64,000 nt of DNA from Asterionella formosa. Taxonomy: Eukaryota. This document shows, piece by piece, positions 3,209-64,000 of the stretch. The notes under the pieces are model-generated. The model searched no databases. It worked only from the letters and a program-made list of their open reading frames with translations, and had not been told where the DNA came from. The translations under genes were made by a program, and so were the position numbers. The stretch covers positions 1 to 64,000 of the forward strand of contig NKIB01012640.1 in assembly GCA_002256025.1 (NCBI GenBank), written 5' to 3'. Each line of letters opens with the position of its first letter. The stretch's first letter is position 1.

Positions 3209-3248
3209 TACCGGTACCAGGTACCAGGTACCGGTACCGGTACCGGTA
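3209..3248. repeat. TA-spacer array (TA-CCGG-TA-CCAGG-TA-CCAGG-TA-CCGG-TA-CCGG-TA-CCGG-TA)
   Basis: Read directly; lies ~600 bp upstream of the 3855 gene. Confidence 0.9.
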
Positions 3249-12400: not shown

Positions 12401-12760
12401 GAGGGCTTGACTCCCGTTTATAAGTTAAGCGAAACAGCAGCGGCGAAAACGGCAACCAAAATAGTCGGGAGTATCGTTCGAGATGCGCACGAGGCTTTTC
12501 AAGACACTGAGTCTGAAGCTTTGGCTTCACTTTACCAGCTAAGTGATACAGTAGCAGCGGAAACGGCAAACAAATTATTTGGGAGCATCATTCGAGAAGC
12601 GCGCGAAACTTTTCGAGACACTGAGCCAGAGGCTGTGGCGTCACTATACACAAAATTGAGTGACACACCAGCTGCGAAAACGGCAAACAAAGTCGTAGGG
12701 GGTATCATTCGAGGGGCGCGTGAAGCCTTTCGCGACACAGAGTTACTTAGCAACCTATAG
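9429..12760 (+). CDS. TBC1D20: TBC-domain Rab GTPase-activating protein (TBC1D20/Gyp8-like), 3 exons: 9429-9564, 9667-9871, 9946-12760
   Basis: GT-AG splicing reconstitutes LRELALTEGGLVN-DSIRKQAWPKLVG. Arginine-finger region QIDRDVAR, glutamine finger YYQGYHD, LSWIITWFAHD and RLFDAFLVSHP are present; TM helix ILIWGGIAIAVVAISIVLV. Confidence 0.88.
12311..12750 (+). repeat. Four coding tandem repeats of 38-39 aa at the TBC protein C-terminus
   Basis: LS.T.AA.TANK..G.I.R.A.E.F.D..PE units start at ~12311, 12425, 12539 and 12656 (114/114/117 nt spacing). Confidence 0.85.
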
Positions 12761-21044: not shown

Positions 21045-21527
21045 AGTACCGGTAGAAGACATCCATCGAATCGACATACCGGTGCTACGACGGTGTCCCT
21101 AGGTACACTGCATCAACATGCTCCTTGAAGAGGCGCGCAATTTACCGGTATAGTACCTGGTACCAGGGTGTGCATGGTTTTATCTTATGTTCTGTTATCC
21201 TGGTACCAGGTACCTCGTACAGACATACATATGTACATAGGTTTAAAGAGGTACCGGTATTCCGATATCGTTTAAAAATCGGTATATGGAGATACCGAGG
21301 GTGTGGAAGTGTGTCGCGATAAAAAAAGCTTACTATGTACTGGTATGAAAGCATTCCTAAATTTCAAATTTTGGTCTTTACGCCAACTTGCTCTAGTACC
21401 AGTACCACGTACTGTACGGGAGTACTTGGTACCGTATTTAGCCAGTCTAGAAGCAAACCACCGGTACCAGTACCTGGTGCCTGGTACCTGGTACCTGGTA
21501 CCAGGACTAGCGGTACTGGTACCAGGG
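21045..21527. repeat. Dense TA-spacer array cluster in a divergent promoter
   Basis: e.g. 21461-21505 CCGG-TA-CCAG-TA-CCTGG-TG-CCTGG-TA-CCTGG-TA-CCTGG-TA-CCAGG, with many single units from ~21045. Confidence 0.9.
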
Positions 21528-24420: not shown

Positions 24421-24534
24421 CCACCTCTCGTGAACATGTGGAGCACCTGCAATGATTGAAATGAATACCACATTAGTGCTTAGTCGTACTAATCGATTGA
24501 ACATCCCTGTAGTTTAACCCATACCAGGACCATC

Positions 24535-24576
24535 TACCGGTACCAAGTAGCAGGTACCTGGTACCTGGTACCAGTA
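24535..24576. repeat. TA-spacer array upstream of the PPR-like gene
   Basis: TA-CCGG-TA-CCAAG-TA-GCAGG-TA-CCTGG-TA-CCTGG-TA-CCAG-TA. Confidence 0.88.
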
Positions 24577-30164: not shown

Positions 30165-30701
30165 GATTGGATTTCGAAAGAAATTGGCTGTGAATTTGTT
30201 ATTTGCTTTTTACTGTTTGATATTTGACTATGAAGAAATGGACCACGACTGCGTTCGTTTTATGAGCGATGGCTGAAACATGAGACCCACACATAATAAC
30301 GAAGGAAGCAGCAAAACGCTTTGTTCTCTTCATGACTCTTTTTTGCATACCGGTACTGGTACTAGTCTAGTACGGAGAACAGGTGTATAAGAATACCAGT
30401 ATTCATTTGTGCATGTCTCTACAAACTCAAATCGCCACGGCAGTATTTTTGACGAGGTACCGGTATATGCCAAATGCATACAGCGTTGAAGACAAGTCGT
30501 ACTGTAATGGAAAATGAACCCGGTAAGTAACTCAAATTTATCTACCGGTACCGGTACTAAATTGTTTCGTACATGTCAAGTGTCCATGTGATCATGTACT
30601 CATAGAAAGCAAAATCCCCAAGGAAATGGAAGTAAGAATAGTATACCGCCACGTACCTTAACATTTTATATTGTGTATCATAAAATGATATATTTCATTA
30701 T

Positions 30702-30838
30702 TAGGAAAAAGAGATTTCGTCCCCCTATCCCTAACACCAACCCCTTACCCTTCTCTTCAGATGCCACCATGGAGGAGTCTGGGGTCAGGGTTAGGGGGAC
30801 GAAATATTGATATAGTGGGAAGAAATATCTTTTTCCTA
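30702..30838. repeat. Inverted repeat or hairpin with telomere-like CCCTAA/TTAGGG words (possible MITE remnant)
   Basis: 30714-30738 pairs with 30781-30805 (22/25); 30702-30718 pairs with 30822-30838 (16/17). Confidence 0.7.
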
Positions 30839-32044
30839 TAAAAATGTAATAAAATTCTATTAGACTTCTTTACTTCCCCGTAGCTATATTAGACTACCAG
30901 TATATACTACTTAGATCAGGAGCAAAGAAACCTTGAAGCAATATATGCTCAATAAATATAATGGCAATCTGTGCAGCCATGATCAAAGTTAGTGCCCAAA
31001 CATCCAATGTGAATGGATCAAAAAACCAGCTAGGAAAGAATGCCTTAGAAATTTTAACGGAGAATACACTGTAGTAGACTAGCTAACATCCCACCCAAGC
31101 AACGAGAGGCAACAAGGGCAAGTCTAGGAAAAATCGGGTACAGCCAAAACTCCACAAGAAAGAGCTATCTATATGGTGGACATAACCATTGAGCAGGGAA
31201 TGAGGGAAGAAGACAGTCTACTTTTCACCAGTTTTTCACACACCATTTTTGCAATCAATGCGGTGGTAAAACTTGTGAAATCTCCCATTGATATGTCCAA
31301 ATAAATTTAGCCGGGAAATTAAAACCCAGAAATGCAGATTCCATACCACCTTACTCCTGCCAACAAGAGGAGAGTTTATTGAAAGGCACAACCTACAATA
31401 TTAACACGGAATCATGTTCTTTGGCAGCAATACAGCAATGAAGGAAAGGAAAAATGGTGGTCGTATCAATATTTGCAACTGAAGGAGTCAGGGTCTGCCC
31501 ACAACCTGCTCCACTTGAAATTTGTTTAAAAATACAAAAAACCTCAGTCATAAACATTGATAGCAGAATGCGCAAAACTCAGGAGATTCAGCAGAATGCA
31601 AAAGAATAATACATGGTGTTTCCAGTGGACTTCCCTTGACAGTCAGAACCAACACATGAAGAGAAGGCAGACTAGAAATCGGCAATTCTATGGAAATTTC
31701 TAGTTTTCCAAAGAGAGAAACAAACACGAAAGTTTAAAATCAAAAGGAATAGCAACAAGAACTAAGGTAAACCAACCATGATTCATTCTCAGTTGTTACA
31801 TTACATAAGGAATTAATTGCATTGGTCTCTTTGCAAAGTAGCACATTATTCCATTCAAGAACACTTGTTCTTTGGTCTTGAACGGCATGACAACAATGAT
31901 CTCGTCACTTCCCTCCAGGTAATGTCATGATGCGCAATGGCTCAGTGTCCATTCTTGGATTGAGGACACGAATTGCAGCTTTGGTTCAACACAAAGTACA
32001 TTCAATCACCTTCCGCCACCAAATGAGAAAATATGAGCATCATC

Positions 32045-41501: not shown

Positions 41502-41547
41502 TACCTGGTATGGTACCAGGTACCTGGTACCTGGTACCAGGTACCGG
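41502..41547. repeat. TA-spacer array upstream of the PhyH gene
   Basis: TA-CCTGG-TA-TGG-TA-CCAGG-TA-CCTGG-TA-CCTGG-TA-CCAGG-TA-CCGG. Confidence 0.9.
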
Positions 41548-46362: not shown

Positions 46363-48197
46363 TAGGGCTGCGAATACGCCAATGCAGCTCTTTTTTCCAA
46401 TACAAGGTATTCCACGAAATGATCGGAATTTTTTCCCAATACAAGAAATGAATAGTTTCTCCGAAATAGGGTTTAATGTTCAATACAAGGTGGGGGAACC
46501 TTGCACTACTAGTTCTAATATTTCGCATCCATCTTGTTATGGTTTACAAATTAGATCATCAGTTCCAATTTAATGTATAACTTGTTTTGAACATGCCCAT
46601 ACAAGGTGTACCTTGATTTGGACCCAATAACTCATTTGCGAAACCATAACAGTATGAGGATAATCATTTTAAGGTTAATAGCAAACTAACATCATCTATA
46701 ATAGTGTATTCTTTTGCCAACGTTAATAATTATTTGCTATTTTAAAAAGAAACGAAAACATTATTGAGTCCTACTACAGTAACAGAGAATTTCTGAAAAT
46801 GTTTGAATCATGTGTTGGAAAACGAGCCCAAGCATTGCCATCATCGCAATTCACCAATCATTTACCAGTCGTTGCGAATTGAAGCGCTCTGAACGATGTT
46901 GACAGTGAAGCACTTAAATGACAGAAGCAAGTTCAAGGTTGAGAAATAGCATGCACACGAACAATACTAATACAAACCTTCACCAATTTGGACTACTTAC
47001 ATCATTTTGCATGAAACAACTGGAGCTGACTACTTTCTTTCCAATCACTCAAAAATTCACTGATCCATCAATTGCATCGAAAGGAGCATTCAGACAGAGC
47101 TGGTGTCTCTGAAGCACTCCTGAAATAAACAGAATCCCGATGATAGGTGAGAAATAATGCACAGGCAATTCTTTGGTATGTCCAAGAAAGTCGCAGGACC
47201 AACATGCTATGGCGTAAAACATTTTCAATTTCTTAAGCATGGCACCTTACCTATCATTATGAGTATTCCCTGTTCAGCTGGCTGGAGGTGAGTGAAAGAG
47301 TGAGACATTGATGGCTTCCGCAAATCGTCATAAAGGATAAGAAATATAACTTGGATGTATTATTATTGTGATGTGAATAAATAGCATCAACTCAGTGATA
47401 GTTTCCCGGTATATGTATACTATGCTATTATACACAGTCAGTACAGAATAATTTGAGAGAGGACATATGATCATGTGCCAGGCAGACAGATTAAAAAATT
47501 TGAAAGCATACATTACTGTATAATAATATGAAACACAAAATGACAGTTTTAAATGATCAATACGCATTGCAGACACATAGCCAAAATTTGGAAAATTTTG
47601 AAAATATATATTACTGAATAATCATAGAAATCAAAAGAAAACGGTTTTATCAAAATGCATCATACTATGATGATATTGTATGTACAGTTTTCAAGCACTA
47701 TAGAGCAATACAGGGTCAGCCTTGAATTGCAAAATATTGTCACCTTGTATCGGGACTCATGACCTTGAATTGGGATAAGACGTGGTACCGCCAAAACCCA
47801 ATACAGGGGCAACCTTGAATTTGAAGATATTGTCACCTTATACTGGAACTTATCACCTTGTATTGGGACATGACTTAGTACAGCCAAAACCCAATACAGG
47901 GGCAACCTTGAATTCAAAATGTTGCCACTTTGTGTTGGGAAATAAACAGATCCTAATATAGGGAATACCTTGTATTGAATTATATTCTCATGACAAATAA
48001 AGGAATGCCTTGAATTGGAGTGTTGAAACCAGGATATTTTTCACCTTGTATTGGACTTGACATACGAACCTTTTTGCCAATACAAGGAGGTGAACCTTGT
48101 ATTGGAATGGTGTATCACCTTGTATTGGAAAAAAAGAATATCAAATGACCGATACCTTATATTGGAAAACGTTTATGATGCCCAATACAAGGTACGC
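46363..48197. mobile_element. Non-autonomous DNA transposon remnant with inverted subterminal CCAATACAAGG repeats
   Basis: TTTTTTCCAATACAAGGT (46391-46408) is the exact reverse complement of 48117-48134. Many CAATACAAGG/CCTTGTATTG copies at both ends; left edge TAGGGCTG is hAT-like; right terminus not resolved. Confidence 0.7.
47706..47935. repeat. 93 bp tandem repeat (~2.5 copies) inside the element
   Basis: CAATACAGGG..CCTTGAATT units start at 47706, 47799 and 47892. Confidence 0.85.
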
Positions 48198-59415: not shown

Positions 59416-59849
59416 GATGTGTGTTCGGCGGAGGCTTTAGACTACTGAAATATAGTCTGGCTAATAGTGGTGGAGATATAGATGGTGTTCCGGACGAATA
59501 TATGAGAGAGTTTTCTGAGGACATATCTTCCGAGCGAACGTTGCAAATGCGAAACCACGTTAACCGGTAGTGGCTTTATCCGAGGACGAAGAAAGTTAGC
59601 AGCTGACTGGTCATCGATTTGTGTCATACGTGGCCTTTTGTCGTTGGATCTTCCCGTCGGCGACAGTCAACCTAAGGAGAATGACGTTGTAGGAGAAGGA
59701 GTGCGTACAAAAAATCGGTGAGGGATTGCAAGACGGTGAAGATAGAGTGTCAATGACGTGACTCGAAGTCGTGTGTGATGACAAATGTCGGAGTTTGAAT
59801 GTGGTCATCGCTCGGCACCTGCCTCGTCATTTGTGTTCTTCTACAGGTG

Positions 59850-60022
59850 CCTGGTACCAGGTAGTAGTACCTGTTACCAAGTTAGCAGGGGTATCTGTCC
59901 CAGCATCCAATGCAAAGGGGTGTACACCCTGTATGGAGTACCTCGTAAAGGCAACTCCGGGAGACAATGCAACTGGTACCAGGGTACCTGGTACGGTACT
60001 GGTACTGGTACTGGTACCAGTA
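59850..60022. repeat. TA-spacer arrays upstream of the desaturase
   Basis: 59973-60022 CTGG-TA-CCAGGG-TA-CCTGG-TA-CGG-TA-CTGG-TA-CTGG-TA-CTGG-TA-CCAG-TA; CCTGGTACCAGGTA at ~59850. Confidence 0.9.
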
Positions 60023-61596
60023 GCCAAATTAGTATGCACACGTACTCGGAGTACCATGTACTTTATGTTGGCTGAGAAACAACCTTGGTGGTGTTCGCGT
60101 TCATCACTCGCTGCGTCCCTCCATACCTCTGTCCTCGAAGAAAATCTCAATGCAGGAACGGATTCCAGGTTCCTACGCTCGATGCATGTGACTGCATACA
60201 TTTCTGTCCTTTGAGTCCTGCCACCAATTCCAGGGTGGTGTATATCATATCAGTAGTCCCAATGAGAAACAAATGAATAAATTAACGAGCATGCGTTTCT
60301 GGACAAAAGAGTATAGCTTAAGTTTTGTGCATGCCCAGACTTATGATGAGCTGGCCAGCATCCATGTCGATGATTTCATCAGCCTCCCTTTTGAGGTCAG
60401 CCACAAAGAGAGCAATCGATGATGTATTGACACTGTAATAGTGTCAAATCTTTCTCCTTCTATTGTTTGGAAAAGAGTCAATGAAAAAATGGGGGTTTGG
60501 AGCAAACATTCAGGACACGAGAGTGAGGTTCGACTATTTCTAGAATACTTAGAACATATATCAATTGCTTAGAAAATTTTGAAGTAATTGTTTTAGAAAA
60601 TCAACTATAGTGGAGTTACTTGGGTTGCATTGTAGCCCAGGATTGTAAATGTTGGACATTGAAGTTGGGTGAGGAGCCCATGCAGCTCTTGGCTGTGTAT
60701 GGCGGAAAAATATTTTTTGTAACTGTAATAGTAGCTAGGTGTGAGTCAGGCAAGGAGCCCATGTGGCTCATAGAGTAAAGTGGATATAAGAGTCGGGATT
60801 GTAACCCGGAAAGTTTAATGGTGCAATTTTGAAAATATACTTAGAACATCTATTATTCGTAACACAAATAGCATGCACTATGATCTGGCTGTTGCCAAGT
60901 CCCTATTTTTTCCTTGCATCTCTCACACAAATTTCCATTATGCAATTGGCAATGCATAGACTCCTCTACTTGGTTGCATGGATGTCATGCTCACTGCATC
61001 ATGGTGACAGTCTCCACCAGCCATCTACCAGTGATCTCCAAGATGATGTTTGACCACTGATTTGGTCAAAGATGTCAATCCTGTTCAAAACAAGTTATAA
61101 AACAGTTATATCCAACCCATTTTTTGTTCTGGGCATCTCCAGATTCACACAAGCTATACTGTTGTTCAATGATTCAAGCTTGCTCGTCCTTCACAACAGT
61201 TGTCATATCCATTCTTGTCACAAATGGAACTTTTTCTTGTTCTGTGGCAGGTCATGGGAGGCAGCAAACTTGAGGCAAAGTCTAGTAATTCCTGTGCCGC
61301 TGCATCACTGGCAGGAGGGAAGATTGGAGCGATTTGATTTTGTGGTTGCATAATAGCTGGGGAATCTTCACACTAAATAGATCATATATACTAAACGAAA
61401 TTGTGTGCTGATAGCGCTGATCATGGCGGTTATGTTGATAGTAAATCAAGCGGTGCAGGAGGTTTTAAAATTGTTGAGTAAACCAACAGAATAATACCAA
61501 CATGGTTAATTTGATTTTAACAAACGTTTAAGCGCTAAATAGTATATTCATAGGGTCAGGGGTTTTGCTAATACTAGGCCAACAGGGCCTACCTTG

Positions 61597-61692
61597 TGGC
61601 CCCAGAAATAGCCCCCACCATACCTGATTGTGTCCCAGAAATTGCACCCAGCCATACCTGCTGATTATGCCCCTTAAATTTGCATCCAGCCT
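61597..61692. repeat. Degenerate ~36 bp tandem repeat x3
   Basis: CCCAGAAAT.GC.CCC..CCATACCTG repeated. Confidence 0.6.
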
Positions 61693-61745
61693 TACAAACT
61701 GTACAACACATCAACTACTGGAGAGGGGCCTGTCTGCATTATTGA

Positions 61746-61777
61746 TACTGGTACCTGGTACTGGTACTGTACTGGTA
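61746..61777. repeat. TA-spacer array next to the TIR elements
   Basis: TA-CTGG-TA-CCTGG-TA-CTGG-TA-CTG-TA-CTGG-TA. Confidence 0.88.
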
Positions 61778-61871
61778 GTTGCGTTGATGTGATGGTGTGA
61801 TGTGATGTAACACAAGCTATGTACTGGTATGTCATAGACCAACACTAAATACTGATATATACTACCAGATA

Positions 61872-63390
61872 CCCAAGTAAAAAACTGCATTGACCCACTG
61901 ATGGTATAAAAAGCACATTTTGTTTTAAAAAATCATTCATTTTCTATTACTTAAGCTCCAGAATGTTTCCTGAGCATATATCAGATGGAGTCATACTGCT
62001 AGTTCTCAGCTGATTGGATGTCAATCTTTTGTTAATTTTGGTCAAAAGTGGCAATCAAAAAAAGTGAAAAGCACAGATTATCCCAAGTTTGGATTTCTCA
62101 TCTTATATTGTATACAATGAGGTATATAAATTTCTTGCATTTTATGTCTTATCCATAACCTTGTTAATAATAAATCTGTACATAAAAATTGATGAGACTT
62201 GGAGCGGCCAGCCATGTAATACCGGTATCTATGTAGGCAGAGCATCATAAGTACCTGGTACCAGTAAAAAACTGCCATGACCAATTGAGAATATTTTTGA
62301 ACTGCCGTGACCCATTGAACGCAGAATAACACGTTTTGCAATCAAAACTCAAATAAATATAGATTTTGAGACTTCTGGCTTCTTCCCGAGAATATAGGCT
62401 AGTCAGCCATGTAATTAGTTTGAGATTTGGAGCAAGTTATTCATCAATAACACGGATTAGGGTAAGTTTAGAAGTCACCACATCATATGATATACGATGA
62501 TCAACATAATGATTTGAACCTTCACCTCATTTGCGACAATATAGTAAATCTTGTCTTGGTATTGACTTCTATGGAGATGGCAAATTATTTAGGCACATAG
62601 CATCATCATGCAAATGCATAATGTATGATTACGGGTATAACAGGTAGGGAGTACCTACCAGGTTTTCATCGCACCTTTCTAATAACACACATGCCAAGTG
62701 CTTTAACACATGACCTCATCTGTCCTCAAAAATGTATATAAATTTATATACGTTTATCTGGAAAAAAAGTATATACTGCCGTGACCCACCATTGAAATCA
62801 CTTTTTAGCTGTTTTAATTATCATTGTATCTTTCTGATGAAATTGTTCAATCAGAATTCTAACACAACAGCTTGATTTATCGATGCTGCTCTGACACTAT
62901 CGAACAAACGGATCTGCAATTTGGTAGAATTTACCATTAGTTGGAGGAGTCAAACAAACACCCTAACTCAATGGGTCATGGCAGTTTTTTACTGGTACCT
63001 ACCCATGATGCGACCAAAACTGGTACATCTATAGTACCAGGAATGGTACTGGCTGGTACCAATTTAATGTATGGAGCATCATGCATTTTATGTCTTTTCA
63101 CTTTCAACCAAACAGGATAATCCATGTTCACCAATGAATATAAAATTACTTCCAGGTATGGTAAAATTTTCATTCACTGCATTGACCCATTGAGACTGAA
63201 TTTTACATCTAGATGAAAAAAAATATCTTCTGAACCAGATGTTCAATTTAACTAGGAACAGGATGCTAATGTACCGATGCCTTATGACATCAATACTTCT
63301 GAACAAATTTCAGAGAGAGGCGAGCTAAGTGTTAGTCGAACTGATCAAACGAATGGGATAAAACAGTGGGTCAATGCAGTTTTCTACTGG
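61872..63390. mobile_element. Outer non-autonomous TIR element (TA-flanked, CCAG...CTGG-type ends)
   Basis: Left AGTAAAAAACTGCATTGACCCACTG (61876-61900) matches the reverse complement of 63364-63388 at 24/25. The right end is followed by TA-CCAGG-TA; the left extreme is slightly degenerate (TA-CCCAAG). Confidence 0.8.
62261..62995. mobile_element. Inner 735 bp non-autonomous TIR element (MITE) with TA target-site duplication, nested in a related element
   Basis: 29 bp TIRs CCAGTAAAAAACTGCCATGACC(A/C)ATTGAG match at 28/29; TA at 62259-62260 and 62996-62997; internal ACTGCCGTGACCCA copies at ~62301 and ~62776; no ORF. Confidence 0.88.
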
Positions 63391-63840
63391 TACCAGGTAT
63401 CAACAGCCACCTATATGCAATGAACCAGGCCGAATGTTAATTTTTGACTCCCATGGCGACTTCACTGCCGCGCCTCCAATTTGATGACAGGAGTCGCCAC
63501 ATTGATTTCTTAATTTGGAACAATCACAACCAAACAGGACTTTCTGATGCGAAAAGCTTCAAGAATGTCTAAATTCCCTCTACTTCAATTGACATTACTG
63601 GGAGTTGCCAGCTTAGAATAATTCGGTGTGGATGCGAACGCGAATTCTTTCTATGCTTGTCGGGGTTCGCATATTCTCACAGCAAATAGTATGGAAGGCA
63701 TGGTATTCGCTCCCACTACTGGTACCTGGACACCTTGCGAATTCCTCATTTGATTCCCTGATTTGCTTAGCAATCACAATTTGGGGAACACAAAATTCTC
63801 TCCTGCTATTATCGACTTGTTACTTCTCACAACCAACATC

Positions 63841-64000
63841 ATGTTTTCTCGCTCTACTAAAATCCTCTCTCGCGCCACTGCCATGAAGCGCACTATGTCC
63901 ACTTTATACGCCACCAAATCGGCCAAGTCTATTATTGGTATCGGAATCGTTGCTTCCGCTGTGATTCTCATGGCCCCAAAGGACGAATTCGATGATTTAG
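63841..64000 (+). CDS. 5' end of a probable mitochondrial protein (runs off the window)
   Basis: CAACATC-ATG then MFSRSTKILSRATAMKRTMSTLYATKSAKSIIGIGIVASAVILMAPKDEFDDL: a basic/hydroxylated presequence plus a hydrophobic segment, open to the window end; absent from the ORF track. Confidence 0.65.
   Translation, partial: MFSRSTKILSRATAMKRTMSTLYATKSAKSIIGIGIVASAVILMAPKDEFDDL

Follow-up and report, generated by a model that had tools for sequence, protein, structure and literature searches.

Nested elements in the window

The DNA analyzed here comprises positions 1 to 64,000 of contig NKIB01012640.1 of the diatom Asterionella formosa (assembly GCA_002256025.1); this whole stretch of 64 kb is called the window below. 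Close to its end lie two nested transposable elements with CCAG tips, surrounded by short units of the form TA-X-TA that recur throughout the window. A first-pass annotation had described these elements as members of one family with terminal inverted repeats (TIRs), inserted into footprint-like units, and had proposed that the family is drawn to the scars of its own excision. The nesting was borne out by reading of positions 61500-64000 together with a repeat search. The elements are a candidate source of the scars, and their family probably made them.

The inner element, 735 bp on the forward strand at 62261-62995, begins with CCAGTAAAAAAC and ends with GTTTTTTACTGG. The repeat search paired arms of 33 nt at 62257-62289 and 62967-62999 with 97% complementarity. 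Without the palindromic GGTA, the TIRs at 62261-62289 (forward) and 62967-62995 (reverse) match at 28 of 29 bases, the left arm reading CCAGTAAAAAACTGCCATGACCAATTGAG and carrying the core site ACTGCCATGACCAA at 62271-62284. Both sides are flanked by TA (62259-62260 and 62996-62997), the left and right copies of the target duplication. The full context is GTACCTGG-TA, the element, and TA-CCTACC; the annotated size, repeats and flanks of this element agree with the letters exactly. Its left end adjoins a TA-CCTGG-TA unit (62252-62260). The core recurs in a second, direct copy 30 bp in from the left end (62293-62318, core at 62301, forward strand), resembling the inverted repeat/direct repeat (IR/DR) layout, and a further core in left-end orientation lies 220 bp from the right end (62775-62788, forward strand).

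The inner element sits at a TA inside the outer element, which spans 61872-63390 on the forward strand and measures 1519 bp, or 782 bp when the inner element and its TA are subtracted. Its arms, found as a TIR pair at 61876-61900 and 63364-63388, are 25 nt long and 96% complementary (24/25). Both are of a ACTGCATTGACCCACTG subtype, unlike the inner arms. The flanking TA dinucleotides are at 61870-61871 and 63391-63392. At the right, the end reads CTACTGG-TA-CCAGG-TA, as had been claimed, so that a TA-CCAGG-TA unit (63391-63399) adjoins the element; at the left the neighbour is a near-unit, TA-CCAGA-TA (61863-61871), one mismatch from the CCAGG unit. An internal core at 63176-63189 (forward strand), 214 bp from the right end, has the same layout as the one at 62775. 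Of the units that had been reported inside the outer element, the one near 62220 is an exact TA-CCGG-TA (62220-62227), whereas around 63020-63060 only degenerate sequence is present and no exact unit bounded by TA. The array of units announced at 61746-61777 is indeed there: CTGG-CCTGG-CTGG occupies 61746-61766, continues in degenerate form to 61777 and lies 95-105 bp left of the outer element.

Local alignment showed that the two elements have only their 26-27 bp ends in common, while the interiors are unrelated; the two represent separate subfamilies whose ends are of one kind. No stop-to-stop open reading frame (ORF) longer than 87 amino acids overlaps 61800-63450, and an Rfam search of 61000-64000 gave no match at E <= 0.1. 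Both elements are non-coding and multi-copy, like MITEs (miniature inverted-repeat transposable elements).

Copy number was examined in contigs of four public sequencing runs (X1, X2, X4 and X8), from among 20 runs that hold part of the stretch. In X1 the summed contig depth is 1e5-3e5 inside the elements against about 800-900 in the flanks, a contrast of ~100-300-fold, although summed depth is no strict copy number; both outer arms also stand at high summed depth. From this run 5092 contig pieces matched, 1039 of them at >=99% identity. Depth contrasts in X2, X4 and X8 are like those in X1, and high-copy sequence variants occur in the run contigs at 63174-63190, around the internal core of the outer element. 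The family clearly has many copies, part of which are young.

Two other repeats lie left of the nest. A 33-bp tandem repeat (2.7 copies, consensus GCCCCAGAAATTGCACCCAGCCATACCTGCTGATTAT) at 61599-61695 stands directly left of the scar array, and X1 and X2 contigs skip 129-136 bp there, so its copy number may vary. A second high-depth segment at 61404-61504 (summed depth ~69000 against ~900 beside it in X1) has conserved loose ends at 61408 and 61440 and is probably another repeat family.

Core sites, relatives and element boundaries

The 14-base core ACTGCNNTGACCCA has 11 matches with at most two mismatches in the window against 5.4 expected, a number reached by 2 of 100 shuffles. All seven matches with no or one mismatch fall in 61884-63380: one in each of the four terminal repeats and the three at 62301, 62775 and 63176. 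The TIR search word was not significant in the window (4 matches, 2.3 expected; 23 of 100 shuffles reach 4).

Relatives were sought in a metagenome scan with GTANAAAACTGCNNTGACC, a loose pattern that matched at least 118 loci, among which three (L038, L057 and L058) carry a true end. A scan of viral contigs with CCAGTARAAAACTGC gave 95 matching stretches, none of which runs on into the core. L057 is closely related to the inner element but longer, and the inner internal core is conserved in it (position 1222, reverse strand). One longer element is present in two copies, L038 and L058, whose flanks differ. Each copy reads ...GTA/CCAGTAAAAAACTGCTGTGACCCAC... (the slash marks the end of the element), with a second core 30 bp further in; the paired left-end cores are at 504 and 533 in L038 and at 1719 and 1749 in L058. 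The two-site left end is a family feature, because the paired sites recur in these relatives from elsewhere.

At (G)TA, three bases upstream of CCAG, the sequences of L038 and L058 diverge, and the boundary is therefore at TA/CCAG. The element ends thus read TA/CCAGTA...TACTGG/TA. TA flanks every readable end, in both window elements and in L038, L058 and L057, while the bases further out vary, in agreement with the annotated TA duplication. Furthermore, two X2 contigs part from the window directly past the TA at 63391-63392. A 3-bp duplication (TWA, PIF-type) was ruled out by GTA on the left versus TAC on the right. It might still be argued that the true ends are offset, with GGTACC belonging to the TIR and TA not being the duplication: the palindrome lengthens the inner TIR to 33 nt, and at the right end of the inner element 59 of the 62 listed contig ends, taken from three runs, part from the window only past CTGG-TA-CC. 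The bases outside the TA vary (GA, AG, AT, TG) but the TA never does, no other direct repeat flanks the 33-nt version, and the transposase family associated with these ends has the Tc1/mariner fold. Offset ends are regarded as extremely unlikely.

Excision scars

Excision by Tc1/mariner elements is described in the excerpted text of PMC6943129: the non-transferred strand is cut a few bases inside the element, so that 2-4 bases from the start or the end of the element stay behind as a footprint between two TAs, as in the TACAGTA or TACTGTA scars of Sleeping Beauty. Every TA-X-TA with X of 2-7 bases was counted in the window and compared with a second-order Markov expectation. The units with X = CCGG (43 observed, 0.5 expected), CCTGG (18, 0.3) and CTGG (18, 1.1) showed the three largest excesses of all, while CCAGG (13, 0.3) ranked sixth and CCAG (12, 1.3) eighth. 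Together these five classes number 104 against 3.5 expected, a 30-fold excess; the elements' own tips account for three of the 104. The five classes are the joins of at most four bases of the left tip (CCAG) with at most four bases of the right tip (CTGG), so the spectrum is the one predicted from CCAG...CTGG tips. This supports the earlier claim that the GG-TA-CC units come from the family's own scars, and we infer that the units are excision products. Units that keep six or more bases were not found in the window (CCATGG and CCAGCTGG are absent), and the CTAG unit is likewise absent (0). When all four-base tips were scored alike, CCAG came first of 256 with 104 units, followed by CCAT with 79. 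Unrelated DNA (764 kb) holds 4.8 units per 64 kb.

Scars are sparse in coding sequence. Stop-to-stop ORFs of at least 150 amino acids contain 15 of the 104 units, although such ORFs cover 45% of the window, and 12 of these 15 belong either to the unsupported ORF at 59762 or to the ORF at 21323, upstream of its Pfam domain. The flanks of L038 and L058 hold units too, and scars therefore occur outside this genome as well.

Ordinary microsatellites or regulatory motifs, resembling the tips by coincidence, might also give GGTACC-rich tracts. The motifs are palindromic and some tracts are situated close to gene starts (such as 21154-21520, 24522-24576 and 41502-41545), but 68 of the 81 occurrences are single units and not repeats, and the TA-bounded units take exactly the five forms that the tips predict, CTAG not among them. 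This explanation is considered very improbable. A second possibility is that most scars stem from other TA-inserting families with CC...GG tips, the CCAG family contributing little. The commonest scar, CCGG (43/104), requires only CC...GG and could have come from elsewhere in part. The other 61 units, those of the four- and five-base classes without CCGG, specify CCA or CCAG; besides CCAG being the best of the 256 tips, the CCAG family stands at very high depth in four runs and no other TA-flanked family with CCAG tips is present in the window. A predominant role of other families is therefore held to be quite unlikely.

Apart from the five classes, three-base units of the Sleeping Beauty type are mildly enriched in the window (TA-CAG-TA 13 against 4.8 expected, TA-CTG-TA 9 against 4.4). 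One such unit adjoins the L058 element; these units may belong to a second, CAG-tipped family or be trimmed CCAG scars. The flank of the L038 element also contains, at 100-340, three copies of a ~100-bp repeat (ATTCAAATTCAAATCAATCGT...ACGTTTACATACAAA) with scar units between them.

Stacking of scars and target preference

Scars are often stacked, neighbouring units sharing a TA. Besides the array next to the outer element, the window contains a six-unit array CCGG-CCAGG-CCAGG-CCGG-CCGG-CCGG at 3209-3248, four-unit arrays CCAGG-CCTGG-CCTGG-CCAGG at 41514-41543 and CTGG three times followed by CCAG at 59997-60022, and a three-unit array CCTGG-CCTGG-CCAG at 24555-24576. Scars share a TA in 21 adjacencies, where 2.8 are expected over all TA sites and 4.0 over non-coding TA sites, and none of 20000 simulations of random TA targeting reached 21.

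Such arrays could in principle have grown mainly by slippage or by templated (polymerase-theta-type) end joining of true scars, without re-insertion, the elements lying by the arrays because both occupy open non-coding DNA. Tandem Repeats Finder indeed calls the tracts 6-7 bp tandem repeats, runs such as CTGG three times and CCGG three times are present, and same-type neighbours make up 10 of the 21 adjacencies against 26% expected (P = 0.027), as slippage would give. Slippage or templated repair therefore probably contributes to the arrays. Unit types with 6- and 7-bp periods are mixed in 8 of the 11 multi-unit arrays, which one slipping unit could not have produced. Moreover, the preference seen at the flanks of the elements themselves acts on the bases next to the TA and is not merely regional (see below). 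As the main origin of the arrays, slippage or templated joining is thought unlikely, although it deserves to be taken seriously.

Target preference was read from 10 half-sites: four in the window, those of L038, L058 and L057, and three contig classes (X4 at 62300, X2 at 63392, and an X1 insert between 63000 and 61876). GG precedes the TA in 6 of the 10, whereas it does so at 299 of the 3755 TA sites in the window (8%; P = 4e-5). The other four have GA (outer left end), AG (L058), AT (the X2 contig class) and TG (the X1 contig). Two of the four element ends in the window adjoin an exact unit, while 4.9% of TA sites bound one (P = 0.014), and a third adjoins a unit with one mismatch. The preference for GG-TA-CC and the enrichment of neighbouring units that had been anticipated for the flanks are both supported by these counts. 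The idea of self-targeting is supported but not proven.

The transposase of the longer relatives

The longer copies L038 and L058 contain an ORF that begins ~460 bp from the element end. The ORF of L038 matches P0001, a protein of 260 amino acids, with 90% identity. A full scan of 1.84 billion representatives gave 103 relatives, some of them 584-690 amino acids long. With the C-terminal part of P0025 as query, 166 proteins were found, mostly of 800-1000 amino acids and on contigs of 3-4 kb; two of these bear the source label of hypothetical proteins from Fragilaria crotonensis. Residues 22-270 of P0116, a protein of 906 amino acids, align collinearly with P0001 (E = 3e-19). P0013 matches the C-terminal part of P0001; since its N-terminal DNA-binding region is joined directly to the C-terminal region without a catalytic core, it is a transposase copy with an internal deletion. 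P0013 could act as a DNA-binding competitor.

Searches at the level of sequence gave little. Pfam searches with the ORFs of L038 and L057 yielded nothing at E <= 10, and phmmer found no match to P0025 among PDB sequences at E <= 10. Structure prediction was more informative. P0116 was modelled with AlphaFold2 from 47 sequences, and the model has a mean predicted local distance difference test score (pLDDT) of 78, and of more than 90 over most of the core. It was compared with 48161 PDB representatives, Z-scores being those of VIA-align. The four best matches were the Mos1 catalytic domain (Z 12.8, 191 of 201 residues aligned), Metnase/SETMAR (Z 12.7), the Mos1 paired-end complex (Z 12.2, 249 residues, the second helix-turn-helix among them) and Sleeping Beauty (Z 11.4), against Z <= 9.2 for retroviral integrases. 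Foldseek alone found Mos1 at E = 0.01. Residues D447/E448, D596 and D634 are invariant or nearly so in the family; going by conservation, D447, D596 and D634 would form a putative catalytic triad in which 37 residues separate D596 from D634. The model also aligns with the CENP-B DNA-binding domain at Z 5.6, and the nearest named clusters from a protein language model all carry DDE_1 (score 0.85-0.87), which serves as a lead only.

From the predicted structure of these relatives it is concluded that the partner enzyme of the elements is a transposase of the Tc1/mariner superfamily, an assignment that fits the TA flanks; within the superfamily it probably belongs to a divergent pogo-like clade. 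It had been suggested that the longest copies be classified by their transposase: this succeeded for the protein family of the relatives, which has the Tc1/mariner fold, but not for the copies in the window. Two peculiarities of P0116 may be added. The catalytic region of the model comprises ~340 residues versus ~200 in Mos1, and residues 720-906 form a conserved C-terminal part of ~200 amino acids, predicted to be helical, into which the alignment of no strong transposase match extends.

Proposed mechanism

We consider it probable, though well short of certain, that the scars derive from a CCAG-tipped family of Tc1/mariner-type MITEs that is moved in trans and lands again in its own scars. 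The elements would be moved by a transposase of ~900 amino acids with the IS630/Tc1/mariner fold class; it is proposed as the enzyme acting in trans because its N-terminal DNA-binding region stands at the beginning of longer relatives that share these ends. Cuts would fall at the TA/CC junction on one strand and a few bases further in on the other, so that the donor keeps CC(AG) 3' overhangs. With a full overlap of the CCAG overhangs, the outer C:G and G:C would pair and two central mismatches would remain. Strand-coherent correction of these would give TA-CCAG-TA or TA-CTGG-TA, and correction of both to G:C, or a blunt 2+2 join, would give TA-CCGG-TA; A:T-biased correction would give the CTAG unit that is absent here. 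An overlap offset by one base would pair C:G and G:C around an A:A mismatch and result in TA-CC(A/T)GG-TA. New insertions would favour GG-TA-CC, of which each scar would supply a TA-CC and a GG-TA half-site, and repeated cycles of insertion and excision would stack the scars into GGTACC-rich arrays.

A broader version of this scheme is put forward tentatively, and may well be wrong. The preferred target would mimic the donor junction of the family itself, TA/CC on both strands, so that scars would seed insertions and successive cycles would write the GGTACC arrays in the manner of a footprint ratchet, with an enzyme from a large pogo-like clade of ~900 amino acids that is not covered by a profile model and is widespread in diatoms. 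We infer the positive-feedback step, in which a scar makes a half-site and the half-site draws an insertion. Confidence is higher for the anatomy of the elements and the origin of the scars, and lower for this step.

Besides the frequency of CCGG and the excess of same-type neighbours, several observations weigh against the proposed mechanism. Neither copy in the window contains a transposase, so that the enzyme is classified only through relatives, and the link from the window to P0116 consists of the shared ends of L038 and L058 and an N-terminal region with 26% identity. Pfam searches with 15 proteins of the family gave no match that reached threshold and only two below it (among them HTH_Tnp_Tc5 in one of the 15, at 17.9 bits against a cut-off of 22.2), and none of the 120 relatives listed out of 166 has a precomputed Pfam domain. 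The left tip of the outer element is degenerate, reading TA-CCCAAGT instead of TA-CCAGT, and this element was not seen intact elsewhere. The joints listed for the run contigs included neither an empty site nor a scar allele of the two insertions; those at 62261>63087, 62108>63351 and 61766>63063 have short sides or contain inserts of unknown origin. The target preference stems from only 10 readable flanks, of which three are consensus classes of contigs, and in two cases a pair of half-sites belongs to a single insertion. Finally, the contig ends counted at the inner right end are the best-supported ones, with 487 more behind them, among which a class that diverges right after the TA may hide.

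Other repeats in the window

A further TIR-bounded element, unrelated to the CCAG family, lies at 46391-48134. Its arms, beginning with TTTTTTCCAATACAAGG, measure 25-32 nt with 72-88% complementarity, and it contains a 93-bp tandem repeat at 47706-47928. Nested inverted repeats at 30675-30865 consist of 54-nt arms (70%) and of 26-nt arms (88%) around motifs like GGGTTAGGG and CCCTAACCC, and may represent a small hairpin element. A 114-bp tandem repeat (2.8 copies, 76% matches) at 12426-12743 lies within a long ORF with a RabGAP-TBC domain.

Comparison with known systems

The elements as such are ordinary in kind, namely nested MITEs of the Tc1/mariner type. What goes beyond the routine is the match between tips and scar spectrum, the stacking of scars and the GG-TA-CC flanks. 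Like the MITEs derived from Tc1/mariner elements (Stowaway-like), they are short, non-coding, multi-copy elements with TIRs that insert at TA and would be moved in trans and leave TA-bounded footprints. Unlike these, they have CCAG and not CAG tips, and about 100 scars are present in 64 kb, often stacked into GGTACC arrays. The target context of Tc1 and Sleeping Beauty is AT-rich, whereas the flanks of the present family prefer GG-TA-CC. The left end, with two direct putative binding sites 30 bp apart, resembles that of IR/DR elements such as Sleeping Beauty and Tc3, but the right end differs, having one inverted site and one left-oriented site ~215 bp inside.

Minos, the subject of Arca et al. 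(1997), is reported to leave TA, four terminal bases of either end and TA, its 4-base overhangs pairing but for two mismatches in the centre. Here the classes CCAG and CTGG have this form; the CCWGG and CCGG classes, which are equally or more common, and the absence of CTAG set the present family apart. To the pogo/Tigger/CENP-B-like group the transposase family may be linked by its position near DDE_1 clusters, the weak HTH_Tnp_Tc5 match and the alignment of the CENP-B domain, while it differs in lacking any match at Pfam threshold, in its length of ~900 amino acids, in its enlarged catalytic region and in its helical tail.

The nearest precedent for re-use of a site is that of Triticeae, where, according to the excerpted text of Mason-Gamer (2007; PMC1925063), a Stowaway MITE repeatedly left and re-entered one site in intron 4 of a beta-amylase gene. 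That case, as given there, concerns one locus followed over a phylogeny, whereas here re-use is deduced from stacked scars and the GG-TA-CC rule. In the literature searched (subscription journals and supplements lay outside the search) no description was found of diatom excision scars of this kind, nor any report of footprint-directed targeting, for Tc1/mariner elements included. None of the literature text matches listed for TACCGGTA concerns transposons.

If the proposed mechanism is true, a transposon family shapes the base-level texture of non-coding DNA in this diatom, with ~1.6 scars per kb in the window, and a target preference made by a family's own excision products would be a form of homing. 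In addition, the finding points to a large family of diatom transposases that is not recognized by Pfam.

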